A stretch of DNA of 64,000 nucleotides from a virus. Position numbers and translations under genes: made by a program. The stretch spans positions 37,203 to 101,202 of the IMG/VR virus record IMGVR_UViG_3300050821_006485, one strand, 5' to 3'. How positions within the stretch are numbered: position 1 is the first letter of the stretch; the number at the start of each line of letters is the position of its first letter. The notes under the pieces are model-generated. The model did no database searches. It saw only the letters and a program-made list of their open reading frames with translations, and was not told the DNA's origin. Positions 19,454-41,993 of the stretch are shown in pieces.

Positions 19454-19530
19454 CCTGAGATTAATTACCTCAGGCAGCCGTGGGGAATGCCTACCTATGC
19501 ATGGGCATTCTCCGCGCATCTTCATAGGAG
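19454..19530 (+). promoter_or_regulatory. Hairpin plus SD-sequestering pseudoknot leader (copy 1)
   Basis: CCTGAG/CTCAGG hairpin; 15-bp stem with loop CCTATG pairing CATAGG over the SD AGGAG. Confidence 0.7.
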
Positions 19531-19537
19531 AAAAATA

Positions 19538-20191
19538 ATGCCGCATCATAAGAATACACATTGTAAGCATGGACATGAGTACACGGTAGAAAATACAAGG
19601 ATATTACCTAACGGGGCAAGAGTTTGTCGAGCATGTAAGCGTGAATGGGCAAGAGAAAACACGGGATTAGAAGAGGGGGAAGTAAAGCAAAATAAAAATC
19701 AGAACACTGACAAAACCCATTGTCTTCGTGGTCACGAGTTTACATCGGAAAACACATACATGAAGGGCGAACGTAGGATTTGTATAATTTGTAGGAATGC
19801 CGCCCAGCGCGATAGACAAAGGATTGCAGAAGCAAAATACAGAGCGTTAAAGAAATCCAGCCCTGAATTATGGGAAAAAGAAAGACGAAGAAGAAGGGCA
19901 CAACAACTTAAAAGAGTCGGTTGGAATATTGATCTTTTTGAAGAGACCCTAAACCTGCAAGAAAATAAATGCGCCGTTTGTAGAACTGTTCTAGATATTA
20001 ATGCTATAAAGAACGGCGCTACTAACCAGGCTCATGCTGACCATGAGCACGTAGAGCCTCCAAAGCCTAGAGGTATTTTATGTGGCAATTGTAATTTAGG
20101 CATTGGAAATTTAAAAGAAAACCCAGAAATTATGTTGGCAGCAATTGCCTACGTAACTAAATGGAAGGAAGAGAGGTCGTACGGGCCATAA
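19538..20191 (+). CDS. Free-standing homing endonuclease, endonuclease VII family
   Basis: Two THCxxGHExTxENT modules; QENKCAVC...HADHEH...RGILCGNCNLGIG; ATG 19538 after AGGAG. Confidence 0.85.
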   Translation: MPHHKNTHCKHGHEYTVENTRILPNGARVCRACKREWARENTGLEEGEVKQNKNQNTDKTHCLRGHEFTSENTYMKGERRICIICRNAAQRDRQRIAEAKYRALKKSSPELWEKERRRRRAQQLKRVGWNIDLFEETLNLQENKCAVCRTVLDINAIKNGATNQAHADHEHVEPPKPRGILCGNCNLGIGNLKENPEIMLAAIAYVTKWKEERSYGP

Positions 20192-21491
20192 TTTATCGCA
20201 GTTAGGTAAGTAATTGCCTCATCAATCAGCAATGATTGTTTGTAACCTAGAGAATTCGGTGGAACACCCGATAGGGTCAATACCGAGCCGAGCCCAGAAA
20301 TGGGAAGGTGTAACGACTATCTCGAAAGAGAGTAGGGAACAGCGTTCCCGAAGCACTAGGGGTCCTGCAAAGGGATCAAGATATAGTCTGGACTTATTAG
20401 TAATAATAAGAGAGTAAGCGGACGCGGCTTATTTGTAACAATAATCGACAGCATCATTAGACGCCTTTTCTGGATTAATCACCATAGCCGATGCAGTGGA
20501 CCTCCCTGAAGGCGCGAGTCCTAGAAATTGGGACGTTCAGTTTAACGTAGGTAGCGTACGCACCAGGTCCGGTTTATTGAGCGTGTACTCTTACGCGACC
20601 ACATTAATAATCACTTCCTATGTTCTTCATTACGGTATAGCAGTGTTTGGGTATACTGGCGTAGAACCAACGGTTAATGAGGGGTTTTTGTTGTCCGGTT
20701 TTATAAACAACCTTTCATATCTGAATGGCCTCCAGGTATTTGTCGTTTCCGCGACAGCAACAACCTTCTCGGTTTTCTTGCCATTTAAGGACGACGGTCC
20801 ATTTTTCAATCTCACAGGTTCTGCGGTCTCCCTTTCAGGCGCATTCGCTGGGCCTAACCTAGGCAACACCGTAACTTCCACCGGGTGGACCAACCCCAGT
20901 GGAATCCTAGGTAACGTTTCTTACGCCTCGGCAGTCGGTGGCGCAGCCTTATCAGCAACAATGGTTCCTACGGCGGCAGGAAATGAGTCGTCTAGTAATC
21001 CGGCGTGGACCGCCCCTGGCAACGTATACACTACCGGCTCGGCATTCGCCCAAGTTACTCTATCTATCGCCGCAGGTGGTGGCGGAGGGGGCGGTGGTGG
21101 TGGCGGGGGTGGAGGTGGAGGGGGTGGCGGCGGAGGCGGTTGCTTCTCCGCAGCGGTTTCCGTTCGTACCCCAGAAGGTCTTATCGAGCTGGGAAATGCG
21201 CCCGGCACTCTCCAAGTTTCTAACGAAACCGGTACGCATAGTGCGCGGCTTATCGTTCACAAGGATTACAAAGGTTGGATGGTGGTAATCGAAGAGGATA
21301 AGCTTGTCACCATAGATCACGTTATGAGGTCCGGGGATAAATGGGAACCGGCTGGGCTTAAATATCACAATCTACGCCGAGTCTGGTTCGTGGGTACGGT
21401 CTTCGATTTACACGTTATCTCCGATAATGAGGCAGATCATCACTACATACTGTGGAACGGTGACATAGCCCATAACAAACAACTAAAATAG
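20181..21491 (+). CDS. Tail nozzle/stabilisation-like protein, N-terminal part (spliced: 20181-20207 joined to 20448-21491), ending in Gly22 and a Hint domain
   Basis: Spliced frame reads (M)GHNLSQLG|TASLDAFSGLITIADAVDLPEGASPRNWDV; start inferred at ACG after GAGG; ORF caller starts at 20496. Confidence 0.65.
20208..20447 (+). ncRNA. Group I intron (IA-like, no internal ORF)
   Basis: P1 AGGT|AA-GTAA-TTGCCT with U.G at the splice site; P3 CCTAG/CTAGG; P4 TTCGGT/ACCGAG; R GTAACGACTA; P7.1 and P7.2 hairpins; S AAGATATAGTCT; P9; terminal G20447. Confidence 0.9.
21141..21476 (+). other. Hint (intein-like, BIL-type) autoprocessing domain
   Basis: Block A CFSAAVSVRTPEG, block B VTIDH (TxxH), block F VFDLHV, terminal AHN followed by K rather than C/S/T. 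Confidence 0.85.
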
Positions 21492-21503
21492 AAGGGAGTA
21501 ACC

Positions 21504-24500
21504 ATGGCGGTATCCGCATTGCTGCTGGCAAGCAGTATAAACTTTAACATACCCAGTAGCGCTACCGTGCTTGGCATTTCCACGTCGTTCGCAGCGCAAG
21601 CCGTGGGCACCGGAACTCCCTCTATTAACATTGAACTTGCTTTAAACGGGGCACCGATAGGGTCGTATATAAACGTTCCTATCGGCAGCTCCCTGAAGAC
21701 CTATACTCAGGGTTCTTCCGCATTTCAATGGGGAACTACGTTAACACCCGCCATTGTAGATGGCAGTTCGCTTGGCATTCTCCTGCAAGCCGAGTTGGAC
21801 ACCTCCGGGACCTCAGCGGTCAGCTCCACGTTTAGCGTAAACAACCTCTCGGTGTCGGTATACTACACCACGTCTTTGCTTTCTGAAATTTTGCAGGTCG
21901 AGACGTTTTCCTTTGCGGTACCGGCAACATCTGGTATATCCGGCATCGGGGTGAGCTTTGTTGCGTATTCCAGCCTTACTACTAACTTGTCGGTGCAGAT
22001 GATTAAGGCCGAGGTGCCGGTTGGTACGCCGAAAAGCGTAACGCTAAGCAGCACACCTACTATCTACACGATTGGGGCATCGAACGATCTGTGGGGCACC
22101 ACGTGGATTTCTTCTGATATCAACAACACAGGTTTCGGTGTACAGATAACCGGGTCGGGGGTTGGTACTACATTTGCCAAAGATTTAGATATCTTGGCTT
22201 ACCTTACTCCGTCTTTGGCTGATTTTCTGTACGTAAAAACATATGAGCAGAACAACGGGCAAATTACTACTCTTGCCTTAGATGATTCTGGAATCATGTG
22301 GAAGGAGGACGTTAACAATAACCCTAACGTTCTTTCCACGGCCTTGGTTGGTATTATTCCCGGTTCTTATGCCAAGAGCGCCACGGCGGATAACCAAGAG
22401 TACATCATGTTCTCAGACCTCTCCATTGGCACGGAGAGACCCAGAGTTTTAAGCGGTAACACTTTTTATCCCCTGTCTCAAGTAGGACCGGGAGCACCGC
22501 CATCGTTCCAGGCATCAATCGGCTCGATAAGCAATATACTGAGCCTTAGCCATTATTCTCTATCTGGGAATGTAGTTACCTTTACCTATACGGGTACTAT
22601 GCCTACGGTAGGCAGCATTTATATTCTCAGCAATGTTGTTTCCTACCTAAACGGACAGTCGGTTATTGTACTTAGTACCGGATTATCGCCCACCACGTTT
22701 GAGGTGCAATTTCAACACCCTGATGATATTGGCTCAGCAATTAATGGTACGGCCACGCCTACTTTTAGTTATTCCATCCAGTCGATTACGCAACCGGTGC
22801 CCTATTCTGGCATCGCAGAATTTTTGTGGAGCGCGGGTCCGGGACAGACTTCTCCGGGATCAACGGTTACGGTTTATTATAAGCACGATACAACTGGTGG
22901 ACAGGACCCAGGGTTATCTTCCACAACAAACCCTGTTTATGTTAACTTAGCACATGCTACAGGAGGGGCGGCACAGTTTAATGGTACATGGCTTGTTAAT
23001 GGCACGGGATTAGGAAATCCTCCGGGGGTAGGGGGTAATTATTGGTACTTTACGTTTACTTATACGGCATCCGGTAGTTACAGTCAAATTTTTCCTCCAG
23101 GAAATCCTGTTTCATACCAAATTACCCTTGCAACCTTAACCACATCTACGCCCATCCCTAACCTTACAGCGGGTAGTCCGATTACTATTACCGGGGTTAC
23201 ACCCACCGGTTGGAATAGCAACTGGACAATAGTTACACCCCTGACTAGCGGAGTTCTTAATATTAGTGGCACCCAGATGGATGCCTCCGGTAACGCCTCG
23301 TATACGTACAACGTACAAAGCGGGGCCGGTCCTTTAGTCGGGGAAATTGTTACTGTTACGAATTGTACCAATGCGGCTATATTTAATGCCACCGGAGTTA
23401 TTTCTTCTGTGGCAGGCGGAATATTTCAGATTGCCGGATTCCCGCCAAATCATCCCATACCGTTTGCGTTTGAAGCTAATGGCGTGGGTTCTACGTTTGG
23501 TACGCAGTTTACATTTGATCCCGGCGCAGTGGTCGCGGGCACTACCGGCCAATCTATTTTTGGCAACGCTGGTTCTGGTGGAAAGGTTACCATTGTTGGC
23601 AGCTCGATTCAGCCTTTAGGGGCCGGTACTCGCCAAGCGGTAGTGTTCTTTATTACGCAAAGCGGCCTGGAGACTGCCGTGTCGCCGCCGGTAACATTTA
23701 CCACGTCTTCTAACGCCAATGAACTAGAGGTTACTAATATTCCTATCGGCCCTCCAAATGTCATTGCAAGAGGCATAGCGATTACCGAGGCGGGCGCTAA
23801 CGGTGTGCCGGGAGCTAGTTTTTACGTGATCCCTAACAACGTTGTGTTAACCGTGGGAAACACCGTCACTACGTACCCATCCACAATTATTAGGGATAAT
23901 ATTACCACATCTGCTAAGCTTTCGTTTACGGACGCGGTGCTCCTGTCTTCCCAAGAAATAGATGTGCAGGGCAACAACCTGTTTAATCTAATCGAGCTGG
24001 GCAGTTCCGCTTGGTGCCTGCCTTACGCATCCCGCATGTTCTACGGAATGCAGCTAAACAAGGTTGATAACTTTAATAACCTCACGTTCGATGGTGGTTA
24101 CCTACCAAACCCAGGAGGTAACTTATTTCCACTTGGTTGGATTGGAACCGATGTAGCCAATACCAATCTTATTAACAGCCCGGTTACCGGCATGTCTCTA
24201 TACATCAAGAACGCCGGTTCTACGGTAAAGTCCGGGGTTGGTCTAGTTTATCAGACTGCCTACACGGACCCCTACCAAGTTCCAATAATTTTGCCGAATA
24301 CCTTGTATTCCGTTAGAGTGGCAGCAAGCAATCCTTCTGGAAACGCGGTGGGGTCTCTGGTTATCGACTTGACGGACTTCAATACGGGAATCGGATTTGG
24401 CATCACCTACGGAACGTTCTCGGTGCTGTTAGCCAGCATGTCTACGAATACTTCGGTATTTACTGGGGCATTGCTAACCACACCCTTTACACAAGGCGTA

Positions 24501-25769
24501 AGCCCTGCTTTGCAACTAAGGGTGAGCTTAGCGAATGCCGGGCCGGGGGCCGATGTACAGGTGGACAGGATAGAGGTATTCCCGACTTTGGAGCCTTATC
24601 TGCTCACGCAGGTCTATGGCTCGTACATTGATAATTTGGAGGCGATAGATGCCAGCGGTTCCGGGGGGATTATTAATACCGCCTCGGAAAATAGCCAAAC
24701 GTGCACGGGCGGGTTCGTGATGCACGACATCATGTATTTGCTCAAAACGAACTCGCTTTATTCCACGCAAGATATCCCAACGAGCGAACCGGGAGGCTGG
24801 AGCCTCAGAGAGGTGAGTAATAAGGCCGGTTCTATTGGAATACATTCTTATTCCTCAGGCGAAGAGTGGGCAGTGATGGCGTGCCGTGCGGGGATTTATG
24901 GTTTTAACGGCGGGCAACCTGTTCCCATTAATTGGGAAATCAGACAAATTTGGGAAGCAATTAATTGGGACGCTGGTAAGACAATTGTATTGCGCAATGA
25001 TGTAACTAATAAAATGATGTATTGTGCAATCCCTTTGCCGACCGGTACTGACCCAGTTACAGGTATAACTACAAAGTCTATAAAGTGGCTTCCTTTTGCC
25101 CCCTATAACCCGGCTCCTATATCTCCAAATGTTATGTTGGTTCTTAATTACCAAGCAATGGATTCTTTTGAGGAACTAATAGGAGCATCAGGAATTAGGA
25201 CCACGATGTTTGGCACGCTTGCCGCTGTTGATATGAAGCGTAAGTGGACTATTTGGCAGATACCAAGTCCGTACATGGATTTTATTATGAGGCCAAATGG
25301 AATTGATACTCCTCTATTCGTGTGTAACGGAATTGATTCTTCAAAAATTTATGAATTCGAAGACAACCAATTTAGCGATGATGGTACAGCAATTTTCAGC
25401 CTCTATACAACCTATGGGCATGTTAATGCTGCTAAGAGTGCGACCATACCCCTGTTCGGTTATCACGCGAAGAGATACACGGTATTTCAAGTGAACGCAA
25501 AAGGATCGGGTAACATGCAAGTTAGAGTTATACCTAATGTGCTTGAAGCTCGTTACCCTTATACTATACCAGGCGGAATTAATCTTTTTGACCCAGCTAA
25601 TGACGATGCCTTTAGACCTTTAAACATAAAAGGTAATAGAGTGTTTTTGGAATTTTCTACCAATGCCGTTGGTTCATGGTTCCAAGTTTCTAAATCACTG
25701 TTAACTGGCAAGGCCGATCCTTGGTCCAGTTTGAATCCGACCGGAGGATTAAATACCGGCATAAAATAA
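21504..25769 (+). CDS. Tail nozzle/stabilisation-like protein, C-terminal part
   Basis: 1421 aa; beta-propeller-like segments (MYLLKTNSLY, GIYGFNGGQPVPINWEIRQIW) with inserted beta domains; own GGGAG RBS. Confidence 0.65.
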   Translation: MAVSALLLASSINFNIPSSATVLGISTSFAAQAVGTGTPSINIELALNGAPIGSYINVPIGSSLKTYTQGSSAFQWGTTLTPAIVDGSSLGILLQAELDTSGTSAVSSTFSVNNLSVSVYYTTSLLSEILQVETFSFAVPATSGISGIGVSFVAYSSLTTNLSVQMIKAEVPVGTPKSVTLSSTPTIYTIGASNDLWGTTWISSDINNTGFGVQITGSGVGTTFAKDLDILAYLTPSLADFLYVKTYEQNNGQITTLALDDSGIMWKEDVNNNPNVLSTALVGIIPGSYAKSATADNQEYIMFSDLSIGTERPRVLSGNTFYPLSQVGPGAPPSFQASIGSISNILSLSHYSLSGNVVTFTYTGTMPTVGSIYILSNVVSYLNGQSVIVLSTGLSPTTFEVQFQHPDDIGSAINGTATPTFSYSIQSITQPVPYSGIAEFLWSAGPGQTSPGSTVTVYYKHDTTGGQDPGLSSTTNPVYVNLAHATGGAAQFNGTWLVNGTGLGNPPGVGGNYWYFTFTYTASGSYSQIFPPGNPVSYQITLATLTTSTPIPNLTAGSPITITGVTPTGWNSNWTIVTPLTSGVLNISGTQMDASGNASYTYNVQSGAGPLVGEIVTVTNCTNAAIFNATGVISSVAGGIFQIAGFPPNHPIPFAFEANGVGSTFGTQFTFDPGAVVAGTTGQSIFGNAGSGGKVTIVGSSIQPLGAGTRQAVVFFITQSGLETAVSPPVTFTTSSNANELEVTNIPIGPPNVIARGIAITEAGANGVPGASFYVIPNNVVLTVGNTVTTYPSTIIRDNITTSAKLSFTDAVLLSSQEIDVQGNNLFNLIELGSSAWCLPYASRMFYGMQLNKVDNFNNLTFDGGYLPNPGGNLFPLGWIGTDVANTNLINSPVTGMSLYIKNAGSTVKSGVGLVYQTAYTDPYQVPIILPNTLYSVRVAASNPSGNAVGSLVIDLTDFNTGIGFGITYGTFSVLLASMSTNTSVFTGALLTTPFTQGVSPALQLRVSLANAGPGADVQVDRIEVFPTLEPYLLTQVYGSYIDNLEAIDASGSGGIINTASENSQTCTGGFVMHDIMYLLKTNSLYSTQDIPTSEPGGWSLREVSNKAGSIGIHSYSSGEEWAVMACRAGIYGFNGGQPVPINWEIRQIWEAINWDAGKTIVLRNDVTNKMMYCAIPLPTGTDPVTGITTKSIKWLPFAPYNPAPISPNVMLVLNYQAMDSFEELIGASGIRTTMFGTLAAVDMKRKWTIWQIPSPYMDFIMRPNGIDTPLFVCNGIDSSKIYEFEDNQFSDDGTAIFSLYTTYGHVNAAKSATIPLFGYHAKRYTVFQVNAKGSGNMQVRVIPNVLEARYPYTIPGGINLFDPANDDAFRPLNIKGNRVFLEFSTNAVGSWFQVSKSLLTGKADPWSSLNPTGGLNTGIK

Positions 25770-25772
25770 TAT

Positions 25773-25843
25773 CTCATAGCTTAGCGGCTTTGAGCTAGAG
25801 CTGGAACAGCCTGATACTGCTTCCAGCTCGATCTTATCAGGAG
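25773..25843 (+). promoter_or_regulatory. Hairpin plus SD-sequestering pseudoknot leader (copy 2)
   Basis: CTCA..TGAG hairpin; GAGCTGGAA/TTCCAGCTC stem with loop CCTGATA pairing TATCAGG over AGGAG. Confidence 0.72.
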
Positions 25844-25848
25844 AGAAA

Positions 25849-26478
25849 ATGATAGTATATTTAGTAACAAACAAACATAACGGAAAACAATATGTAGGGC
25901 AGACCGTAAAACCTCTTCAAACTAGATGGGCGCAGCATGGGAATGACACTTCTCATGTATCTCTCTTACGCAACGCTTTGAAAAAGTATGGAACAAATTC
26001 TTTCGTAATAGAAATTATCCATGAATGTCTGCATAAAGAAGAAATGGATTTTGTAGAAATATTCTACATTTCATTTTTGAATACTAAATCTCCTAATGGT
26101 TATAATTTAACAGACGGGGGAGAGGGAAGTTTAGGGCATACGCCTACAAAAGAAGCAAGAGTTAAAATGAGTTTGGCTAAGAAAGGATTACTACCGCCAA
26201 AGCCCATAAAAAGGGGACAAAGGTTATCCCCGAGTACAGAAATTAAAAAGGGACAAAGATTATCTCCTAGTACTGAATTTAAAGCCGGATTTATTCCTTG
26301 GAATAAAGGTAAGTCGCATCTAAAAGGGGCGCTTAATCCTTTTTACCACAAAAAACATTCTCCCGAAGCTTTACAAAAAATGCGACTAGCTAAACTCGGT
26401 AGAAAGCAATCTCCAGAACATGTAGCTAAGAGAATGGCCAGTATATTAAAAAGGAAGGAACTAGATGGCTCACGGTGA
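25849..26478 (+). CDS. GIY-YIG homing endonuclease with NUMOD3-like repeats
   Basis: IVYLVTN...YVGQT...RW, E, GYNLTDGGEG; KGQRLSPSTE twice; HSPEALQKM. Confidence 0.9.
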   Translation: MIVYLVTNKHNGKQYVGQTVKPLQTRWAQHGNDTSHVSLLRNALKKYGTNSFVIEIIHECLHKEEMDFVEIFYISFLNTKSPNGYNLTDGGEGSLGHTPTKEARVKMSLAKKGLLPPKPIKRGQRLSPSTEIKKGQRLSPSTEFKAGFIPWNKGKSHLKGALNPFYHKKHSPEALQKMRLAKLGRKQSPEHVAKRMASILKRKELDGSR

Positions 26479-27094
26479 ACATGCAATTCTAGAAGGTGGC
26501 CGTGAACTCCCATTTCTAAGCCAACAAAACACTTATCTAGGTTCTATTCTTCAGCGCATCCTTGACGCCGTGAACCTTACCGCAAAGAACGCCGGTGTTT
26601 CATCCGTGGGCAAAATTGCACCCCCTGATCCGGTGGACAGTGTGAATATACAAGGTACTCAACTTGGTTCTAAATTAATCGCTCCTTCTGAAATATTGCA
26701 TCTGACCTTAACTCATAATGGGCCTGTAAAGAAAAACGTCCAGTACATAACAGAAGTCGCTACGGACAGTAACTTTTCTAATCCGCATATTATAGATCAC
26801 GGATGTAGCCGCTCGGCATTCGTTCATCTTCCTACTTATCTTGACGATGGCGTTACTAAGCAAATCTATTATGTTCGCTCGTATCCGCAATATCCCGGCA
26901 GCGATCCCGCCAGACCGACCGTATTTGGGGGTCTAGCGCAGCCAATACAGGTGCAGATGACCGGTTCATCCGCAGGTACCTTACTACAGTCTACGGGCAG
27001 CGGAACTGCCTCTCCGACCGGTAATCAGGGCGGACACGGCTTGGGCAAGATTCTAGACAGACCGGCTACGGGGCCGAAACGTAATTTGGTGTAA
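26465..27094 (+). CDS. Virion structural protein
   Basis: FnIII-like YITEVATDSNFSN...YYVRSY; lies in the tail module. Confidence 0.6.
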   Translation: MAHGEHAILEGGRELPFLSQQNTYLGSILQRILDAVNLTAKNAGVSSVGKIAPPDPVDSVNIQGTQLGSKLIAPSEILHLTLTHNGPVKKNVQYITEVATDSNFSNPHIIDHGCSRSAFVHLPTYLDDGVTKQIYYVRSYPQYPGSDPARPTVFGGLAQPIQVQMTGSSAGTLLQSTGSGTASPTGNQGGHGLGKILDRPATGPKRNLV

Positions 27095-27096
27095 CT

Positions 27097-27276
27097 ATGG
27101 CAGAGAAAAAACAAACGTTAAACTTGAAGATGTACGCCGGGGTACTATTCCCAGATGACTCCGTGCAAACGAGCGCACTTCTCTCCGGTTCGCCCGGTCA
27201 GCTAACACAGACGCAGATGCCCCCTGTTATTGACCCTACTGGTACCCTGACTCAAATTGATCTAGGTGTTTTCTAA
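27097..27276 (+). CDS. Small 59-aa protein missing from the ORF track
   Basis: MAEKKQTLNLKMYAGVLFPDDSVQTSA...TQIDLGVF; stop overlaps next ATG (TAATG); C-terminus resembles that of 27276. Confidence 0.65.
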   Translation: MAEKKQTLNLKMYAGVLFPDDSVQTSALLSGSPGQLTQTQMPPVIDPTGTLTQIDLGVF

Positions 27277-27917
27277 TGTCAATCGCAATCCAACATAAAC
27301 GAGGCCTAAAAGCCAATCTACCCGCGTCTGGCGCGGCGGGTGAGTTCTTCGTAACAACGGATACCCATGAGATAACCATCGGTACCGGCGCGGGAACAAG
27401 CCCACTCAAGGTCGATGCGTCAAACGTAACTAATTTGCCCGCAGCAACTCAGCCTGTGAATGCGCAGACCGGTACAACGTACGCTATAGTTGGAGGAGAC
27501 GCCGGTAAACTTGTTACGTTGTCTAATGCCTCCCCAGTGGCGGTATCAATTCCCCAAGCTGGAACCGGGTTGTTTACCAGTACTTTCTTTGTTGACCTAC
27601 AAAATCTAGGGGCGGGTGCGGTAACCATTACACCGACCACTTCTACGATTAACGGCGCGGCGACCTTCGTTCTACAGAAGAACCAGGGCATTCGCCTGAA
27701 TTCCGATGGGGCTAATTACCAGGTTCAAACTGGTATGAAGCCGGCGAAGTTCACGGCGGTTGCTAACCAGTTCCTAACTAGCGTGGACGACAGTGGCAAC
27801 TTCTCGGCAGCACAGCCCGCGTTTACGAACATCTCGGGAACTTTGGTTGAAGGACAGTTGCCCAGCACCATTGACGGAGTAACAGGGCTAGCAACTATAG
27901 ATTGCGGCACATTTTAA
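27276..27917 (+). CDS. Fibre-type protein with Mtd-N/hyaluronidase-like N-terminal motif
   Basis: [12 protein letters not shown]...GEFFVTTDT; NAQTGTTY...DAGKLV module; IDCGTF end. Confidence 0.65.
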
Positions 27918-27925
27918 AGGAAATT

Positions 27926-28732: not shown

Positions 28733-29038
28733 ATGCCGATCCAGATACAGGTCAAGAGGGGTTCGCAGGCCAATATGCCTGTATTGGCCTTAGGAGAAAT
28801 GTATTTTTGCAGTGATACTAATAAGTTGTTTTTTGGAACGCCGGGCGTAGGAATTGGAAAAATACAAATTGGGGATATTACTAACGTGAATGAAACACTT
28901 TTACAATTGCTTATGGAAATGCGTAGTATTCGCCTAGCACTCGTTCAGTTAGCCTGTGAGGGTGGCCGAGCGAACCCCAGGGATTTTGATCCACAAATTT
29001 TAGCGGCGGACGCCGAAGTAGCAGTAGACGCTTTATAA
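28733..29038 (+). CDS. Small protein with Mtd-N-like motif and coiled coil
   Basis: IQVKRGSQANMP...GEMYFCSDTNKLFFG. Confidence 0.65.
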   Translation: MPIQIQVKRGSQANMPVLALGEMYFCSDTNKLFFGTPGVGIGKIQIGDITNVNETLLQLLMEMRSIRLALVQLACEGGRANPRDFDPQILAADAEVAVDAL

Positions 29039-29048
29039 GGAGATATAG

Positions 29049-29684: not shown

Positions 29685-29686
29685 GC

Positions 29687-31184: not shown

Positions 31185-31193
31185 GGAGAAAAC

Positions 31194-33524: not shown

Positions 33525-33536
33525 AAAGGACCACCA

Positions 33537-35462
33537 ATGTCTAATGACCGTTTTGCGTGGTCAGATGAGGGGGCGAAGCAGGAAGCGCCCCCGGCTACAA
33601 ACAATATACCCGACCGTTTTACATGGAGCGATACAAAGGAAGGAACTCCTGCTCAGTCCCAGACGGCTGCTCAAGAAGAGCCTAGTTTTTTAGATAAGGC
33701 CGATGCAAATATTAATAAGGCTTTAGCGCCAAACCCTAAAAACTATAGCAGCCTTATGAGGACCAATGCTATAGAGGTTCCCAAAACTTTAGGCAGAGAA
33801 GTGTATTCTACTGCTAAGTCTGCTTTGGGGGTAATCCCCGGCATCTACCACGCATTCGCAGATGAGGCTACGCCCGAAGAAAAAGCTCAGAACGCCTCAT
33901 TTGAACAGGCGCACGGAGAAGAACCCGGAGCGGAAACCTCTGGATTTAAGCGCATCGGCTTGGGAGTCCAGCGTATGTCTGGAATACCCGCCGCTATAGA
34001 CGCGTACAAAACATACGCCAATCCTGCTACCCGCCCCACTTTAGATCAAGCTTTAAGCGTTGCTCCAGAAGCTATAGGACAGGGAGCGGGAACCGTTCTT
34101 GGAGCAGAAGCCGCAGGCAAGGCCGGAATGAAAGTGGCAGAAAAAGCTCCGGCAATATACGACAAGTACCAATTGTATAAGTTTCATGCCGATAAAGTAG
34201 GAGAAGCGAAGAAGGTCTACGATGCGGCTCAAAAAGAGGCCGACTTTTATAAGAATTCCCCAGAAGGTCCTCCAGAGGCGGTAACGAATAAGCTTGCTAA
34301 GGCCCATGCGGATTACGCGGAGGCCGCTAAGCACGCTAATAACGCCCGTAATGGTAGACCCGCACCAGCGCAAGCAAATATTACTGTGCAACCACAAGTA
34401 GATAATGCTGTGCCAACGCAAGTAGAACCTGCCGTACAAGATACGCAAATGCGGCCAGCCGCCCCTGAAACGCCCGGTAGCTTGGGTTCTCTAAAGGCAC
34501 GCGGTGGTAAAGTTGTGGATACCGATCCTCAAGGCCTAAACGAAGCCTTGAAAATGTCATTAGCTCCAGATAAGACCGCTAAGCCATTCGCCATGAAACC
34601 CCTTGGCACACCCCCGGCGGAACCCCAGGCAGTCCCGCCCATAGAAAGCCGGGCAGCGCCCCGTACCGGTGGGTTTATAGATAAGGCAGATGATGCCGTA
34701 GGCAAGGAGTTCAGGAAGAACGGGGTTGCTATGCGTCCACTTGGTTCTGCCGTTCCCGGAGACGTAAAGGAGTTCGGATTCGACTTTAGGCCCGCCGAGG
34801 ACATTGGAAATAAGATAAGGGGTGAGCAGCCGGTTAAACCTAAAGCTGAACCTAAGTCCGAACCTAAGGCGGAAGAAACTAAGCCCGCTACAGTAGAACA
34901 AACTAAAGAAGAACCGAAGAAAGAAGAACCTAGCGAAGGCCAAGAGAGTGCCGAGCAACCAGCACCAAAGGAAAAAGAAGTGGCAGTTAACCCCGAGAAC
35001 AGAACTAGGACTGAAGAAGTGGTTTCTCAACATACCGATCAAGACCTGATTAAGCTAGGAGATAAACTAGGGCTTAAGCACGATCAGTACGATTTCTCTA
35101 GACGAGATTCCCACCGCCATCGGGTTGATCGGGATCAGTATGTAAAAGATGTAATTGCTAAGATGCCGCAGAGCAAGATTGACGATATTGCCGCCAAGGC
35201 CGCCAAATACGACAAGAGCGAGCAAGAAAACAACGAATTTCCCTTCGAAGAGGCATCGAGAAGCAGTTTATCTAAGGCAGAACGAGCCCGAGCTATTATG
35301 AAGGCGCACGAAGCCGGGGAAACCGTGGGCACTAAAGAAGGTGCAACCGCCGATACCAATCACTATGAGAATGCCAAGAAGGAGCTAGGCGAAGGCGCTA
35401 GTACTTCGGACATTCTTAAAAGAGCGCAAGAGATGAAGGACCAAGCAAATAAGAAAGAGTAG
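33537..35462 (+). CDS. Putative internal virion / DNA ejection protein
   Basis: 641 aa, disordered/helical; DRFxWSD twice; AMxPLG twice. Confidence 0.55.
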   Translation: MSNDRFAWSDEGAKQEAPPATNNIPDRFTWSDTKEGTPAQSQTAAQEEPSFLDKADANINKALAPNPKNYSSLMRTNAIEVPKTLGREVYSTAKSALGVIPGIYHAFADEATPEEKAQNASFEQAHGEEPGAETSGFKRIGLGVQRMSGIPAAIDAYKTYANPATRPTLDQALSVAPEAIGQGAGTVLGAEAAGKAGMKVAEKAPAIYDKYQLYKFHADKVGEAKKVYDAAQKEADFYKNSPEGPPEAVTNKLAKAHADYAEAAKHANNARNGRPAPAQANITVQPQVDNAVPTQVEPAVQDTQMRPAAPETPGSLGSLKARGGKVVDTDPQGLNEALKMSLAPDKTAKPFAMKPLGTPPAEPQAVPPIESRAAPRTGGFIDKADDAVGKEFRKNGVAMRPLGSAVPGDVKEFGFDFRPAEDIGNKIRGEQPVKPKAEPKSEPKAEETKPATVEQTKEEPKKEEPSEGQESAEQPAPKEKEVAVNPENRTRTEEVVSQHTDQDLIKLGDKLGLKHDQYDFSRRDSHRHRVDRDQYVKDVIAKMPQSKIDDIAAKAAKYDKSEQENNEFPFEEASRSSLSKAERARAIMKAHEAGETVGTKEGATADTNHYENAKKELGEGASTSDILKRAQEMKDQANKKE

Positions 35463-35499
35463 AAACGCAAACCTGAAAGTCCCGCTTTGATGCGGGGGA

Positions 35500-36291
35500 A
35501 TGAGAATAACCAAAATGAGTCTATATGTAAAGTCTCCGTTTAAGAATAGCCCGGCCCTGATGGTCCAAGGTTCCATGTCTTATCTATTTGGCACATGGAG
35601 CGATAAAGTTGGTCCAACCCTAGGAACGGTTTTATCGGACAGCGGCAACGGTGCAACATCCACTGTTAAATTTCTAATTACGTCTGGGAACGTCCCGGTT
35701 GTAGATTCTTTGGTTACAATCGTTGGCACGGCAAATGCTGCCGGAGCCTATAACGTAACCAACGCTAGTATTTTGTCGGTGACAGCCCTAACAAATCCAG
35801 ACGCTGGTGTATACTCTATTACTTTTTCTGGAACCGGAAATAGCGCCTCGGCCACTGATTCTGGTCAGCTAATTATTCCACAACCGGAGATCGGAGACGT
35901 GCTAACTGTTGGCATTGTTGCAGCTCTACCTGCTTCATCTGCCCCCGTAGTCTCTCCCGTTGCTGGGCCTAATTCGGTTGGTAAATCGCTTAGCGCCACT
36001 GTGAAGTTTCCCGCTAACACCGTTGCTAATCCTAGCACCCTTTCTGGGGTAACTGTTGTTATCCAAGGTAGCAACACTGATTTTGACACAGATTACAACA
36101 CGATTGGCACGGTTACTACTACGGGTGCTGCCGGGCAAACGCTTAGTTGGCAAAGTGGACAAAGCGTCGGAACCGTATCTCCGGGTACCCTTGCCGCAGG
36201 TAGTGTGGACTTAATTAATTTTCGCTTTTATCGCTTTCAGGTTACCGCAGCCACGGGTGCCGGGCCAATAATTGCTAAGCTGATGCAATAA
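35500..36291 (+). CDS. Virion structural protein (start may be 35515)
   Basis: Beta-rich; VVIQGSN...FRFYRFQVT. Confidence 0.6.
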   Translation: MRITKMSLYVKSPFKNSPALMVQGSMSYLFGTWSDKVGPTLGTVLSDSGNGATSTVKFLITSGNVPVVDSLVTIVGTANAAGAYNVTNASILSVTALTNPDAGVYSITFSGTGNSASATDSGQLIIPQPEIGDVLTVGIVAALPASSAPVVSPVAGPNSVGKSLSATVKFPANTVANPSTLSGVTVVIQGSNTDFDTDYNTIGTVTTTGAAGQTLSWQSGQSVGTVSPGTLAAGSVDLINFRFYRFQVTAATGAGPIIAKLMQ

Positions 36292-36304
36292 GGAAGGAAT
36301 TACT

Positions 36305-36943
36305 ATGGCAGATACGTACCCAGAAATAGCAATAACCCCCAACCTACAGATGAGCATTACCGGTATGGCGGTAAACATTGCTCAGGATTTCCTTATCTTA
36401 GACTCCCAGTTTGGGTCTGGAGGCGGCCTGGTCACTTCCGTATTTGGTCGTAATGGAGATATCCTAGCCCTTACCGGGGATTATACCGTAGCTATGATTA
36501 CCGGCGCGGCCCCAATAGATTCCCCTTTGTTCACGGGAACACCATCTGGCCCTACCGCTCCCTTTGGCACCAACACTACGCAGTTAGCCACCACCGCTTA
36601 TGTGCAGGCCAACAAAGGCGGAGGCGGCGGAGGTAGCACGCCGGAGTCAGTTCAAACTAAATCTGCAAACGCAACTATAGGATTTGCCGGAGCTATTAAT
36701 ACCTTAGTTGAAGCCACGGCTGGAGTTGGTGGTATTACATTAACGTTGCCCACCGCCGTGGGTGTTGTTGGGCAAACTATAAGAATTATCATGGTAGATG
36801 CCGGTGCTGGTGGGGTGAATATAGTTACCACATCCAGTCAAACCATAAACGGAGCTACTACTTATAAATTAACAAATCAATGGCAAACTATTTCTATGGA
36901 GTCAGACAATGCGAACTGGGTTATCGTTTCTTCAAACGGCTAA
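36305..36943 (+). CDS. Tail-fibre-like protein
   Basis: VTSVFGRNGDI...GDYT and SPLFTGTPSGPTAPFGTNTTQLATTAYV fibre motifs. Confidence 0.75.
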   Translation: MADTYPEIAITPNLQMSITGMAVNIAQDFLILDSQFGSGGGLVTSVFGRNGDILALTGDYTVAMITGAAPIDSPLFTGTPSGPTAPFGTNTTQLATTAYVQANKGGGGGGSTPESVQTKSANATIGFAGAINTLVEATAGVGGITLTLPTAVGVVGQTIRIIMVDAGAGGVNIVTTSSQTINGATTYKLTNQWQTISMESDNANWVIVSSNG

Positions 36944-37919
36944 GTTTTTTCTACTAGCCTGTGTACTTTCTATATGTGCGGCGGGGCAAACTCCGACGCC
37001 GATTCGTGCCGTTACTACATTGCCCGCAACTTGCAAAGGAGGCAGCGCTACGGCTTCGACCGATGTGGTGTTTTTGATAACCGGAACATCGGGGGAGTTT
37101 TACAGGTGCTGGGCTTCCAATACGTGGGTTGTCATGGGTACCATGCCGTCTGACGGTGTACATGCCGGATCGGTACAACTAGGAGGCAATACTACACCCC
37201 CAGTTTTGAACTCTAATATTTTTGCTTGGATTGGCCCTAATTCCAGTTCTTTTACCTCCTGGGGCATAGAGATGCCAAGTGCTGAGCCCTCCGGCACGGT
37301 TCTTTTGGCTGTAGGCGCGGCGTCTTCTCATGTGTCTCAAGGGTCATTACTTGCGTTGCAGGGCACGGGAGCCAGCGTACAAACCGCCGGAACCGTCGCT
37401 GCCTCACAGCGTGCCGTTTGCACAGACGGAAACGCAGCGACAACTACATCTTGTCCTAAAAATGTTATGGTTTTATTTGTAACCGCCGATCAAGTTATAA
37501 GTACTACGTCCTTAAATTCAATTCCTGGATTAAGCGCAACTATTACTTCTGCTGTCCCTTCTGTTGTCTCTATGGACTGTGACATTATGTACAGCCAGCA
37601 AACATCGGCTGTAGCCGATAATTTTGGGATATCCGATACCTCTGCCCCAACTAACATAAATGCGCAAGCATCAGAAGGTACCAACTTAAACGGAGGCGGT
37701 CGAGTTGAGAGTAACATAATTGGGTTAACAACAACTGTGGCCACCAGCTTTGCTAATTTTACTCCGGCTGCTACTAATGTCGTATACAACACTCAAATTC
37801 ATATTTTGGCTGAACAACCGGCTTCTACGGCGGCCCTTAGTATTCTAGTATCGACCGGGAATGCTTCCGACTCGATTACGATTAAGCGTGGTAGCAAGTG
37901 CGTGGTAAATTTCCAGTAA
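36909..37919 (+). CDS. Fibre-like protein with predicted signal peptide
   Basis: KFFLLACVLSICAAG-QT; TTLPATC...FYRCWASNTW; ITIKRGSKC end. Confidence 0.65.
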   Translation: MRTGLSFLQTAKFFLLACVLSICAAGQTPTPIRAVTTLPATCKGGSATASTDVVFLITGTSGEFYRCWASNTWVVMGTMPSDGVHAGSVQLGGNTTPPVLNSNIFAWIGPNSSSFTSWGIEMPSAEPSGTVLLAVGAASSHVSQGSLLALQGTGASVQTAGTVAASQRAVCTDGNAATTTSCPKNVMVLFVTADQVISTTSLNSIPGLSATITSAVPSVVSMDCDIMYSQQTSAVADNFGISDTSAPTNINAQASEGTNLNGGGRVESNIIGLTTTVATSFANFTPAATNVVYNTQIHILAEQPASTAALSILVSTGNASDSITIKRGSKCVVNFQ

Positions 37920-37929
37920 GAGACTATCT

Positions 37930-40900
37930 ATGAAAAAACTATTATATTTGCTTAGCATTTGCCTAGCCTTTTCCATATCTTCCTATGCTCAGGGACCCTT
38001 GGGGTTCGCCGCGCTTCCCACTCAGTGGGTTGACAACTCTATTTGCAATCCCCCAGGAAACGCCTACGATGTAACCATTGTGCTCGATGGTGTTACCTCC
38101 ACTAACAATGGACCAAATTTAACCAGTGGGGGTATCGGATCAAAGTACCCAAACACCGTTAATGGTTTACTAGACGCCATGAATAATTGGAGAGATAACG
38201 GCGCTAATGCTAATGGTGGTAATAGTTATACAGATGCGTGGTGGCTAATTAAGATTCCGTCTGGATCACTCCTACACGGTAATACACTTGACAGCAATCA
38301 GTCTTTGGTTACGTTACCGGGAAAGCTTAACGGTAGTACGGAACCTACAAAGTGTCTTGTATTGGAATCCACAACGCCTTTGCCTGTAGGGCAGATGGCG
38401 TGCGGTAGAGGTTTGCCCGGTTTTGGCGGGGCACGTAATCCGGGGTGTACTTCTCCAAACGACAAAGCAAACATGTGGCGTTTGCAATTAGATGGTCCTC
38501 TTTCTGGAGTTGGCAAAACAGTTATGACCGCAGGGCAAAGTCTAATTGATCCAGCTAAGTATACCAACCACGTCGTGGTTAGGGATGTTGAACTAACGGT
38601 GCAACCAGGCGCGGCCCAAAGCGCGGCGGGCAGTAAAGCAGTTCGATACTTTGTTGCTTTAAGCGCATTTAGCGGACAATCTGTGTTCGGAGTTGGACCA
38701 ACTTTACGCCCGGAAGCCCACGTAATTGGCTTAGATCGCTATTATGCGCACGGGTGGAATCCGGGCGATCCCGGTCAACCTTCGGGAAGCGGGCCTAATG
38801 GCGCTTGCTCAGCTTGGACTAAATCTGGAACTGTTACTACAACCGACAACCACGATGGTACCTTCTTAATAACGCGTGCTACTGGAAGTTATTTTGGTCT
38901 GACCTTTACTGTAGGGTCTCCGGTTACTATTAACGGAAACGTTTATACAATTACTAATTCTAGCGATATATTAAACGGAGTATCTAATTCTACTTTTACG
39001 GTTTCCGGTCCCGCAATTGCTAATGGAACTTACTCCTACACGGAATCAAACCCACCGGCACAGTACGCCATAGGTTGCGGAGACGACTCCGAAGTAGGCG
39101 TCGTTTTTGACTGCGATTATTGCTGGAGAATGAACGGCTATATTGAAAAAATCCATTGGTGGGCAAACGAATCACACTCTTCGTCCCAAGGTTTTGATAA
39201 CGGGCCTCAGAAGTTTGTTAACAATTGGGAAGAAGGTGGCTCGGCGGGGTGGTTTTCTGGTGGTGGTGCCGTAGATTCAAACGGTGGTCCCGGCGGCAAC
39301 ATGGAAATAAGGAGAAATTATTTTGGCAGGGATTTAAGTTGGAGAAATCTGTCTGCGGGTGCGGGGCAGAGCCCCAGTCCTCCGTGGGGATGCGGCCCAA
39401 TAGATGGCAACGGGTCGCATGATACCTGTCCGTTTAATTACGCTATTAAGAACTCTATAGAACTAAAGTTGGGCCATAATGTGTTAGTTGATGGAAACAT
39501 TATAGAAAATAACTGGTCCGATGCACAACCCGGCTCGGTGGTTGTTATTAATGCCCGTACGTGCTCCGGCGGATCGGTTTGTGGTATCTTCGATCCCAAC
39601 AGTACGCCTCCAGGGCTGCCTAAAACAGGAATTGATAACATACGATTTTCTAATAATTGGATACGTAATTCTCCGAAAACAATTGAGATGGCCAATCGTT
39701 CTGGTATACCGGGAGAAGGGGGCGGTTTAAGTCTTCCCGTAAGGAACAACGATTTTATTAACAATGCACAAACAAACGTCGGTGACACAAATCAGTTTGG
39801 AAATCCGGGAAATGGCTGGCAATTTGTATCTGGCTCCAATTTGTTTAATTGTAATATGTCCAGCGTCGGAACAACGGTAACGGCCTCCTGTTTCCCCGGA
39901 CAAGCAGACATAACCGGCCACATCGGTAAGATTGCGAGTGTAAACAATGTAGTGACCATAACCTATACTCAGGCGCGTCTCGATCCTATGTTGTGTCTTA
40001 CTACTCCGACACTTTGCATAGCTAATGGACAAACTCTTATAATATCTAAGCACCCAGGGTGGAATGGAGTGTTTGCTATGGCAGATTCTGCCGGTAAGTG
40101 GGCAGCCGATGGTACCGGAGGAAATAACATTGTTTACACAGACAATATCAACAACCCCGGAACCGCTACTTTGTGCAGCAATACTACTACGTGCGCGGCT
40201 CTATTAGGTAATGGCGATGTTGTTTACACATCCCTTGGTTACAAGCTGACTGATATATTGGTTAATGATAATGTATACGCTCACAATATAACCAAGGCGG
40301 CGGTAATCACCAGTGTTTCTTCTAACGGTACCACCGCGTCACTTACATTGTCCGACAATACTTATACAGAGACTAACAGCTTGGTTGTCGGTCAATCAAT
40401 TAGCATTTCAAAATTAACGGGTTCTAATAGTGTACTGAACTGCACCGGTTGTATAGTTACTAGTGTGTCGGGCTCTAATCCGCAAGTCGGGTTCACAGTT
40501 AGTTCCTCCGCGAATATAGTACTTAATACAACTGCGGGACAACTAGATGACAATACCTGCACCGCGAGTGGATACGCGGTCGGTTCTTCTTCCGCAAATA
40601 CTACCTATGCCCAGGCCGGTACTCTACCGAACGGTTTAACTGTTGTATATACCGCGCCTTCCCCTACCGGAACCGCTAAGTGCATAATTGAAAACGGGGC
40701 CGGACAACCCAAAAACGTTACTATACAAAACAACACGGTTCTGTCTCCCAGCTTGTTTGCGATTACGTCCTTCGGACAATTTTGGCAGTCTAGCGGCAGC
40801 CGGTTCTTTAAAAACGTATTTATTACCAACGATACTGGGCGGAATTCCGATGTAACCTGTACCAATCAAGGAGGTGGGACCTCTGCTTTTACTTGTTGGG

Positions 40901-41439
40901 ACCCGAACACTTTTGAATATTGGCAAAACGTTATGCCGGGACAGCTCTCAACAGCTTGGAGTACCCCCGATCCATTAGGGTTGTGTCCGGGGTGTCTTAA
41001 TTATTTCCCGCCAAATGGAAGCCCAAGTGGATTTGGTGGTGGAAGCCAGGGAGTAAACTGCGCCACCGGTACCGCTAATCCTAATTGCTTGGGATTCTCC
41101 GGGTTTATGAACGGAGCATCCGCACTGGTTACCTTCCCAACCGGGCCGTGTCCAGACGCCAATGCGCCGTATAATTGCCCGCTGATGTCTTTGCCCTACG
41201 CGGATAATTTAAGGCTGTCCCACCTTTCTTATGTCGGGTCTAGTTCGTATTCGGCATTTGGGGTTAACACGGCGCAGATGACCACGGCTATGACACAGAC
41301 CTTGTATATCTGCCCAATCGGGGCGAACTGCGGTCCCCATGGGCCTTATCCCGATGGCGGTGTTAACACCGGTCTAGGAATTAATGGGGTTATATTGACA
41401 CCGTTTACCATCCTAACATCGGGCGCGGTAGAAAAGTAA
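37930..41439 (+). CDS. Large Cys-rich right-handed beta-helix protein with signal peptide
   Basis: MKKLLYLLSICLAFSISSYA-Q; IKNSIELKLGHNVLVDGNIIENNWSDAQ, NIRFSNNWIRN. Confidence 0.75.
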   Translation: MKKLLYLLSICLAFSISSYAQGPLGFAALPTQWVDNSICNPPGNAYDVTIVLDGVTSTNNGPNLTSGGIGSKYPNTVNGLLDAMNNWRDNGANANGGNSYTDAWWLIKIPSGSLLHGNTLDSNQSLVTLPGKLNGSTEPTKCLVLESTTPLPVGQMACGRGLPGFGGARNPGCTSPNDKANMWRLQLDGPLSGVGKTVMTAGQSLIDPAKYTNHVVVRDVELTVQPGAAQSAAGSKAVRYFVALSAFSGQSVFGVGPTLRPEAHVIGLDRYYAHGWNPGDPGQPSGSGPNGACSAWTKSGTVTTTDNHDGTFLITRATGSYFGLTFTVGSPVTINGNVYTITNSSDILNGVSNSTFTVSGPAIANGTYSYTESNPPAQYAIGCGDDSEVGVVFDCDYCWRMNGYIEKIHWWANESHSSSQGFDNGPQKFVNNWEEGGSAGWFSGGGAVDSNGGPGGNMEIRRNYFGRDLSWRNLSAGAGQSPSPPWGCGPIDGNGSHDTCPFNYAIKNSIELKLGHNVLVDGNIIENNWSDAQPGSVVVINARTCSGGSVCGIFDPNSTPPGLPKTGIDNIRFSNNWIRNSPKTIEMANRSGIPGEGGGLSLPVRNNDFINNAQTNVGDTNQFGNPGNGWQFVSGSNLFNCNMSSVGTTVTASCFPGQADITGHIGKIASVNNVVTITYTQARLDPMLCLTTPTLCIANGQTLIISKHPGWNGVFAMADSAGKWAADGTGGNNIVYTDNINNPGTATLCSNTTTCAALLGNGDVVYTSLGYKLTDILVNDNVYAHNITKAAVITSVSSNGTTASLTLSDNTYTETNSLVVGQSISISKLTGSNSVLNCTGCIVTSVSGSNPQVGFTVSSSANIVLNTTAGQLDDNTCTASGYAVGSSSANTTYAQAGTLPNGLTVVYTAPSPTGTAKCIIENGAGQPKNVTIQNNTVLSPSLFAITSFGQFWQSSGSRFFKNVFITNDTGRNSDVTCTNQGGGTSAFTCWDPNTFEYWQNVMPGQLSTAWSTPDPLGLCPGCLNYFPPNGSPSGFGGGSQGVNCATGTANPNCLGFSGFMNGASALVTFPTGPCPDANAPYNCPLMSLPYADNLRLSHLSYVGSSSYSAFGVNTAQMTTAMTQTLYICPIGANCGPHGPYPDGGVNTGLGINGVILTPFTILTSGAVEK

Positions 41440-41452
41440 AAAGGAGGACTAA

Positions 41453-41911
41453 GTGGGTACAAACTTAAACGACATAGCATTGGCGCTGGAAGAACGTGCA
41501 CAAGAACTAGAACGGCAGAAGGCCAGCGCCGTGCACTCGCATAGAATTGAACTGGCTAAACTTAAGAAGCAAAGGGAAACCGAGCAAGCCCGCCAAGAAG
41601 CCGAGTATAGAACCAAGGTTGCCGAGCACGAGCGTATTAAACGAGAAAAAAAGGAAGCCGCAGAGAGAGAACTACGCGAGGAAGCCGTACGGCGTTCGGA
41701 GAAGGACATGGAGTACGCCAAGAAGCAGGCGGAGATAGACTTGGCGGCTAAGAAGGCGGAGGAGCTTAGGGCGCAGATGGTGGAGCTGGAGAACAACCAG
41801 GCGAAAGCCAAGCAAGCGGAACTGGACTACTTAGAAAGCCTTAAGCCAAAAGTTAACAGCGAGAGAATCATGCCGAACCCAATGCAAAGGTTCTTTCAGG
41901 CCCAAGAATAA
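41453..41911 (+). CDS. Charged coiled-coil protein
   Basis: AAGGAGG RBS, GTG start, E/K/R/A-rich. Confidence 0.7.
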   Translation: MGTNLNDIALALEERAQELERQKASAVHSHRIELAKLKKQRETEQARQEAEYRTKVAEHERIKREKKEAAERELREEAVRRSEKDMEYAKKQAEIDLAAKKAEELRAQMVELENNQAKAKQAELDYLESLKPKVNSERIMPNPMQRFFQAQE

Positions 41912-41922
41912 TTTTAAAAAAT

Positions 41923-41993
41923 CTCAAACTTTGATCGGTTTGAGCCAGGGCCTCGTTGCCCGTAAGCAGCGGGGCTCAACCTACTTACGGAGG
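41923..41993 (+). promoter_or_regulatory. Hairpin plus SD-sequestering pseudoknot leader (copy 3)
   Basis: CTCAAAC/GTTTGAG hairpin; GGGCCTCGTTGC/GCAGCGGGGCTC stem with loop CCGTAA pairing TTACGG over GGAGG. Confidence 0.72.

Follow-up and report, generated by a model that had tools for sequence, protein, structure and literature searches.

Introduction

Homing endonucleases are toxic, selfish genes that must stay nearly silent in highly expressed phage operons. Several of those described so far, namely I-TevI, I-TevII, I-TevIII, mobE and segB, are held down by leader hairpins that mask the ribosome-binding site (RBS), and for I-TevI and mobE repression by such simple hairpins has been shown experimentally (PMC3014915). 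What has been published is confined to one-off RBS hairpins from T4-type phages; in the full-text literature we found no pseudoknot or kissing-loop leader described for homing endonucleases, only the simple T-even hairpins. Here, we describe a leader RNA family of about 85 nucleotides (nt) that precedes free-standing homing endonuclease genes of three unrelated families in a phage genome, the IMG/VR virus record IMGVR_UViG_3300050821_006485. The stretch of DNA analysed, hereafter the window, is 64,000 nt long and comprises bases 37203-101202 of this single record of 101,202 base pairs (bp). We found that the leader is a real, strongly covarying RNA family. From its pairing pattern we propose, with a probability of about 0.7, that it acts in cis as a translational brake built into the mobile cassette that carries the nuclease gene.

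The proposed brake resembles the leaders of I-TevI, I-TevII, I-TevIII, Aeh1 mobE and T4 segB in that a leader RNA would pair in cis with the RBS of a homing endonuclease gene on a read-through transcript (PMC3014915, PMC2988022). It differs from them in several respects. Each T-even hairpin is one local stem-loop peculiar to a particular gene, whereas here one alignable family of about 85 nt is shared by three nuclease families and lies inside the mobile insert. In the T-even leaders the Shine-Dalgarno sequence (SD) pairs with one contiguous upstream strand; here it is split between a helix formed with a distant loop and a second helix of 3-5 bp. Finally, a late promoter inside the I-TevI hairpin bypasses the mask, whereas a search of the present leaders for sigma-70-type sites on the coding strand found none, the sigma-70 consensus being one that may not be the phage's own type.

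Results

A leader common to nuclease genes of three families

An earlier note on the window had reported a small hairpin, a long stem, and pairing of the stem's loop with the SD in front of three endonuclease genes. All three features are present at each site, and their coordinates were confirmed (copies S1, S2 and S3; Table 1). The three copies share a common layout: a first hairpin (H1) of 6-8 bp, 2-3 unpaired bases, and a second hairpin (H2) of 12-16 bp, whose loop of 6-8 nt is complementary to 6-7 bases that end in the GG of the SD. The fold z-scores of the three sites range from -2.2 to -3.6. Copies S2 and S3 also share ATCTCA...TTTGAGCnAGnGC, as had been observed. The natural reading of this layout is that the SD would be masked for translational control.

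A strict scan of the whole genome for a hairpin with a loop complementary to downstream bases matched S1, S3 and two copies outside the window (genome positions 32334 and 35424), each in front of the ATG of a nuclease open reading frame (ORF); S2 was missed because its stem contains a bulge. Together with the loop-tail matches described below, this outcome places the observation far beyond chance. A relaxed scan for a hairpin plus a complement gave 19 matches, against about 12 in shuffled sequences, and was therefore abandoned as not specific in favour of a covariance model. Plain MAFFT alignment of whole leaders misplaced the stems, with RNAalifold regaining only 8 pairs, so a first model (R1) was seeded with S3 as its only sequence, and a second (R2) was then built on a structural alignment of six copies.

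We found that R2 recovers all six copies in the genome of about 101 kb, three of them in the window; the sixth had been added by the covariance model. The scores were 86 bits for S3, 77 for S2, 42 for copy SC (genome 21955-22042), 24 for S1, and 16 each for copies SB and SA. The genes that follow are of the GIY-YIG/NUMOD3 type (SC, SA and S2), the endonuclease VII type (SB and S1) and the HNH type (S3, phrog_374). At two HNH-like genes that overlap their upstream ORF (4872-5459 on the + strand and 48974-49528 on the - strand) the model had no match, in agreement with the earlier observation that overlapping nuclease genes lack the leader.

The search was extended to relatives, which were sampled via a capsid exon and comprised 80 IMG/VR loci of 55-87% identity. 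In these loci R2 found 68 leaders at E <= 0.01, all of them on the coding strand; together with the genome's own copies they represent 56 distinct sequences. ORFs of at least 90 amino acids (aa) follow 51 of the distinct leaders, own copies included, and among these Pfam identified 19 Endonuclease_7, 15 GIY-YIG and 5 HNH proteins, with NUMOD3 also present in 14 of the 15 GIY-YIG ORFs. For these 51 ORFs Pfam named no non-nuclease enzyme family. The closest GIY-YIG homologues in IMG/VR (60-66% identity) all have the leader; distant ones (<40% identity) lack it, and one of them has a plain long RBS hairpin instead. Two model matches in relatives (L108 2071-2154 and L130 376-462) have neither an SD (GGAG) nor a start codon, and are probably remnants of decayed nuclease cassettes.

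Copy SA departs from the common layout: a GC-rich hairpin of about 60 nt, built of AGCGA-like repeats (TTGGCA...TGCCAA), stands in place of H1 (L001 12260-12320, genome 32260-32320).

Covariation and structure of the helices

In an alignment of 11 sequences that was fitted to the model, and is thus biased toward the structure, 89.7% of the H1 and H2 cells were paired, compared with 64% in shuffled alignments and 34-48% when the partner was slid, and compensatory changes occurred at 19 of 20 pairs. To escape the bias of fitting, members of equal length were aligned with MAFFT into two gap-free sets (A11 and A13). In these, upper H2 was scored jointly with the loop helix and a further helix, H3 (see below); 97.2% of cells were paired in A11 and 99.5% in A13, versus 76% shuffled and 48-58% slid; since the members had been chosen for equal spacing and a loop match of at least 6 nt, the loop-helix share of these percentages arises by construction. 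Within A11 and A13, the loop helix showed compensatory changes at 5 of 7 and 5 of 6 pairs.

The unbiased figure for the loop helix comes from the distinct model matches: 51 of 54 have a perfect Watson-Crick match of 6-7 nt between the loop and the tail of the same copy. When loops were paired with the tails of other copies, the match averaged about 3 nt, and the 3.8% of such combinations that reached 6 nt involved related copies with a word in common. The loops comprise 35 different words, each of which fits its own tail. The loop is fully paired, with no free 5' base in 47/51 copies and no free 3' base in 50/51, and its partner ends in GG in 42 of 51, mostly 7-10 nt from the start codon. H2 itself contains 48 G-U pairs and 5 A-C pairs, an asymmetry that indicates selection on the RNA of the coding strand.

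H3 was not part of the earlier description. The YCU of a motif that follows H2, GAYCUU, pairs with the AGR that follows the loop partner, giving a helix of 3-5 bp in 49/52 copies. At the third pair, 27 copies have C-G, 20 have U-A and 2 have U-G, and in A13 compensatory change was seen at all three of its pairs (3/3). Because the GG lies in the loop helix and the AGR in H3, the SD (GGAGR) is fully paired in this fold. Moreover, as the partner of the H2 loop is itself closed by a covarying helix of 3-5 bp, the arrangement is loop-to-loop: two fully complementary hairpin loops of 6-7 nt are a kissing-loop design, not a classical H-type pseudoknot. Apart from H1, H2 and the loop helix, a mutual-information scan of all alignment columns found no long-range helix, for instance no outer stem that closes the leader. 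Conserved unpaired bases are few, namely YUAG between H1 and H2 and RA after H2.

From these results, we conclude that the element is a strongly covarying RNA family. The claim that one covarying module is common to nuclease genes of three families is supported by both the covariation and the Pfam census. The earlier note had called it a portable pseudoknot module for translational control; "covarying" and "portable" hold, while the simple H-type pseudoknot is an incomplete description of the fold.

Mobility of leader and open reading frame

That the module travels with the nuclease ORF had also been proposed, and comparison of filled with empty sites bears this out. In four independent comparisons, leader plus ORF constitute a single indel: L134 against L145, L131, L126 and L180; L131 against L158; L130 against L119, L112 and L131; and L164 against L132 and L133. 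The left end of the insertion lies 0-4 nt past the upstream stop codon, at a conserved ATCTC, and the right end lies at the nuclease stop codon, just ahead of the RBS of the next gene. The insertion replaces a spacer of 7-67 nt, often one with a small GC hairpin. The cassettes are found directly behind late structural genes, which encode the terminase large subunit, the capsid protein, and tail or virion proteins.

Leaders and ORFs also appear in different combinations. A near-identical H1 arm occurs before GIY-YIG genes (S2 and L010) and before a different nuclease gene (L134), indicating that leader and ORF are reshuffled between cassettes. Conversely, SC and two leaders of L017 have almost identical H2 stems and different loop and tail words.

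Table 1. Features of the three leader copies in the window and of the genes behind them. Positions are those of the window.
Copy	Feature	Position	Strand	Description
S1	H1 hairpin	19454-19474	+	CCTGAG / CTCAGG; 9-nt loop holds palindrome TAATTA
S1	H2 hairpin	19477-19517	+	16 bp, one bulge; loop 19494-19501
S1	Loop pairing	19494-19499 with 19523-19528	+	CCTATG with CATAGG
S1	H3	19519-19531	+	TCT 19519-19521 / AGA 19529-19531, around partner CATAGG 19523-19528
S1	SD	19527-19530	+	GGAG
S1	Nuclease gene	19538-20191	+	EndoVII-type homing endonuclease, free-standing; 217 aa; Pfam PF02945; PHROGs
S2	H1 hairpin	25773-25794	+	CTCA.AGCT / GGCT.TGAG; 3 nt past upstream stop codon 25767-25769
S2	H2 hairpin	25798-25829	+	12 bp, one bulge; loop CCTGATA 25810-25816
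S2	H3	25832-25844	+	TCT 25832-25834 / AGA 25842-25844, around partner TATCAGG 25835-25841
S2	SD	25840-25843	+	GGAG
S2	Nuclease gene	25849-26478	+	GIY-YIG / NUMOD3 homing endonuclease; 209 aa; Pfam PF01541, PF07460
S3	H1 hairpin	41923-41944	+	CTCAAACT / GGTTTGAG
S3	H2 hairpin	41948-41977	+	12 bp including G-U pairs; loop CCGTAA 41960-41965
S3	H3	41980-41993	+	CCT 41980-41982 / AGG 41991-41993, around partner TTACGG 41985-41990
S3	SD	41989-41993	+	GGAGG
S3	Nuclease gene	41999-42610	+	HNH homing endonuclease; 203 aa; no Pfam match; phrog_374 (HNH endonuclease)

Discussion

A candidate translational brake

Our results suggest how the leader may keep its nuclease gene quiet. Because the cassettes sit behind late structural genes and no promoter of their own was seen, the nuclease ORF is probably read through on abundant late mRNA. 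During transcription of the leader, H1 and the long H2 would fold first. As the RBS emerged, the 6-7 nt that end in the GG of GGAGR would pair with the complete H2 loop, and the remaining AGR would pair with the YCU triplet just upstream to form H3. With the whole SD double-stranded, binding of the 30S subunit would be rare and the toxic nuclease would stay scarce. Since the lock lies within the cassette, such control would work wherever the cassette lands. From the register of the pairing, we infer that the sign of the effect is repression, and that the fold would dim translation constitutively rather than switch it.

Some considerations weigh against this proposal. One is the strength of the lock: the duplex energy of loop with tail is -5.6 to -7.7 kcal/mol, versus -7.3 to -9.5 for SD:anti-SD. 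These values are of comparable size, as an attenuator would require, and suggest attenuation, not an absolute block; as the lock is no stronger than its competitor, repression may be only partial. Another concerns the sign of the effect, given that in the IncB and IncI-alpha plasmids a pseudoknot between a loop and an RBS-proximal tract activates translation.

The remaining difficulty is geometric. Only 0-3 nt lie between H3 and the base of the full H2 (12-13 bp), the lower part of which covaries as well; with such a linker, a single molecule cannot accommodate a stack of the full H2, the loop-loop helix and H3. The loop-loop helix of a kissing complex has one stem stacked at each end, and here the stack of H2, loop helix and H3 would measure about 22 bp, or roughly 60 Angstrom, a distance that 0-3 nt cannot span. 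Nor can 5-7 nt cross a stem of 12-13 bp as the third loop of an H-type pseudoknot. This steric argument is drawn from general RNA geometry, not from a computed model. It leaves two options: either the lower part of H2 melts when the lock closes, which gives two states, or the lock closes between two molecules.

Alternative explanations

If the lock closes between molecules, the SD would be masked in trans: the H2 loop of one mRNA would pair with the SD loop, closed by H3, of a second copy, and palindromic H1 loops would help to nucleate the homodimer. In the symmetric form of this dimer the H1 loops kiss, each H2 loop locks the SD loop of the other molecule, and all covarying helices form at once. 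We consider this a possible but rather unlikely account. The helix lengths and the 0-3-nt linker between H2 and H3 speak for it, in that the covarying helices could form together only between molecules or after melting of the lower part of H2, although geometry just permits the cis fold with lower H2 opened. Palindromes of 6 nt occur in 14 of 33 distinct H1 loops, compared with 4.3 in shuffles and with none of the 54 H2 loops. Those in H1 (TTATAA, TAATTA, TCATGA and TGATCA) fit the pattern T-x-A-T-x'-A, in which x and x' covary and are unable to pair within one loop (examples are found at window 19460-19468 and in copies of L144, L118, L105 and L130). The difference in loop and partner words between cassettes with nearly identical H2 stems (SC and the two L017 copies) also fits a dimer. 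On the other hand, many H1 loops are not palindromic (those of the TTAGCG, GACG and GTTGC types), some copies (SA and L103) have no normal H1, and dimerisation of mRNA leaders in bacteria or phage has little precedent. Were the dimer real, repression would rise with the concentration of the mRNA, capping nuclease output late in infection, and a private loop word for each cassette would keep the pairs orthogonal; the leader would then be a concentration-sensing, self-recognising element of a phage mRNA.

In another reading the RNA does not repress at all. It could activate or position the ribosome, as the repZ/repA pseudoknot does, or act in processing or stability, for example as an RNase III site made by the stacked helices or as a 5' stabiliser after cleavage. 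A stack of H2, loop helix and H3 would, at about 22 bp, reach the size of an RNase III substrate, and H1 begins 0-15 nt past the upstream stop codon, where terminating ribosomes would open it and could couple expression to the upstream gene. The pairing, however, always falls on the SD itself, with the GG in one helix and the AGR in the other, whereas the activator pseudoknots of the plasmids pair a tract next to the SD; nor is an antisense partner or a leader peptide evident. We therefore regard a non-repressive role as improbable. A switch operated by a ligand or protein, whether a riboswitch or an operator for the nuclease itself, had been raised in the earlier note and now seems highly improbable. 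A few unpaired bases are conserved, and I-TevI is known to autoregulate, at the DNA level (cited in PMC3014915). Yet conservation in the leader consists almost entirely of base pairing, its loops and stems vary freely, and it has neither a conserved pocket-like core nor an Rfam riboswitch match; as the same leader serves three unrelated nuclease families, a common protein ligand is also unlikely. We give next to no credence to a feature of the DNA itself, be it an operator, a site of homing or recombination, or the 5' segment of a group I intron. The genome is indeed rich in group I introns, one core lies right behind the S1 nuclease gene, and in some copies H1 and its palindromic loop together make an almost perfect palindrome at the DNA level. 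The G-U/A-C asymmetry of H2 is, however, impossible to derive from DNA symmetry, and the loop complement coincides with the SD and keeps a fixed distance to the start codon.

Several specific identities were tried and rejected. The leader of S1 is not the 5' part (P1-P2) of a group I intron: the neighbouring core (20198-20410) comes with a separate P1, whose U-G pair at T20207 lies 16 nt past the stop codon of the S1 nuclease gene, and the intron belongs to the next gene, which it interrupts. Near S2 and S3 no intron core was found, even at E up to 10. At H1 and H2 there is no terminator-like site on the + strand, and the tails that follow H2 (GAUCUU, AACCUAC and similar) do not suit an intrinsic terminator. 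The earlier note had allowed for a match to a described Rfam motif; in Rfam 15 no family matched any leader, either at the gathering threshold or at E up to 10. For RF02996 (int-alpA) there was no match at the leaders or anywhere else in this genome at E up to 10. An SD-masking riboswitch of the preQ1-II/III or SAM-II/V type was rejected on the basis of the 35 loop words, the restriction of conserved unpaired bases to YUAG and RA, and the lack of an Rfam match.

Comparison with other regulatory RNAs

Among known RNAs, the kissing-loop systems ColE1 RNA I/RNA II, TAR-TAR* and HIV-1 DIS resemble the loop helix. They too pair two hairpin loops of 6-7 nt over their full length, and the H1 palindromes, with covariation at positions 2 and 5, resemble HIV-1 DIS variants. 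Those systems join two separate RNAs, for antisense control or genome dimerisation, whereas here a single mRNA carries both loops, with 0-3 nt between the bases of their stems, and one of the loops is the SD. In the IncB and IncI-alpha repA/repZ leaders, a hairpin loop likewise pairs with a tract at the RBS of a downstream gene; that pseudoknot lies beside the SD, activates translation, requires a leader peptide and is inhibited by an antisense RNA. Here we see neither the SD-adjacent placement nor a leader peptide nor an antisense RNA.

Other comparisons are more distant. RF02996 (int-alpA) is likewise an orphan structured-RNA candidate tied to mobile and phage DNA; it differs in that its model has no match here, and the main text of Weinberg 2017 makes no mention of it. 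The T4 gene 32 pseudoknot is, like the present element, found in a phage mRNA leader and concerned with translational control; unlike it, that pseudoknot is located 67 nt ahead of the start codon, excludes the SD and works via binding of gp32 (PMC3014915). In the preQ1-II/III (reviewed in PMC11625349), SAM-II/V and guanidine-II riboswitches, the SD is also drawn into a pseudoknot or loop-loop helix with an upstream hairpin. Those riboswitches have conserved ligand pockets and fixed loop sequences, whereas here the loop is free to vary provided that its own tail is matched. The leader family, for which we found neither an Rfam match nor a published description, would add a structurally new form to an established type of control.

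Significance of the leader family

In this leader, one alignable RNA family serves three unrelated nuclease families and moves with their cassette. As a single, alignable, cassette-borne family very strongly backed by covariation, it deserves an RNA family entry of its own. Annotation of phage "intergenic" DNA would also benefit, as the leader shows where a nuclease cassette begins on its left side and which start codon is the true one. The free address of 6-7 nt, matched in each copy to that copy's own RBS, would offer a ready natural set of orthogonal translational locks. It also raises the question of dimerisation of phage mRNA leaders.

Genome and setting

The source record is linear, about 91% complete and has a G+C content of 46.8%. 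Searches of GenBank phages gave no cultured relative for the tail proteins, the capsid protein or the leader DNA, and a search of IMG/VR for relatives of the flanking tail genes, the HNH protein and the EndoVII protein gave no syntenic loci. In prokaryote genomes, the capsid protein matched just two short contigs of metagenome-assembled genomes, L183 (Acidimicrobiales) and L184 (Terracidiphilus). These matches hint only weakly at a soil or peat habitat, and we assign no host from them.

The phage genome is rich in mobile elements. Rfam identified one group I intron core inside the window, that at 20198-20410, and four more just upstream of it (L001 205-422, 13600-13766, 14483-14698 and 14803-15012; genome 20205-35012). 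One of these four interrupts the gene for the terminase large subunit, and three interrupt the major capsid gene. The relative L017 has a matching capsid intron with a LAGLIDADG ORF, which lacks a leader of the S1-S3 kind. The intron behind the S1 nuclease gene (window 20198-20447; RF00028, 57.8 bits) carries no ORF. Judged from its P1, the 5' splice site falls after T20207; with a 3' end at G20447, splicing would lead in frame into the ORF that ends at 21491. The frame of the 5' exon is short, open only from 20157 and without ATG, GTG or TTG, which gives that virion gene an unusual start.

The phage also encodes a permuted, two-piece transfer-messenger RNA (RF04321, 82 bits; window 62289-62576, - strand) and a tRNA-Met gene (window 59817-59892, - strand). 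Upstream of S1 lies a gene for a protein with an ice-binding-like domain (PF11999; window 18387-19439). Also present are a protein with the N-terminal domain of a major tropism determinant (Mtd_N; window 27276-27917) and a weak Mom-like match (L001 15980-16534).

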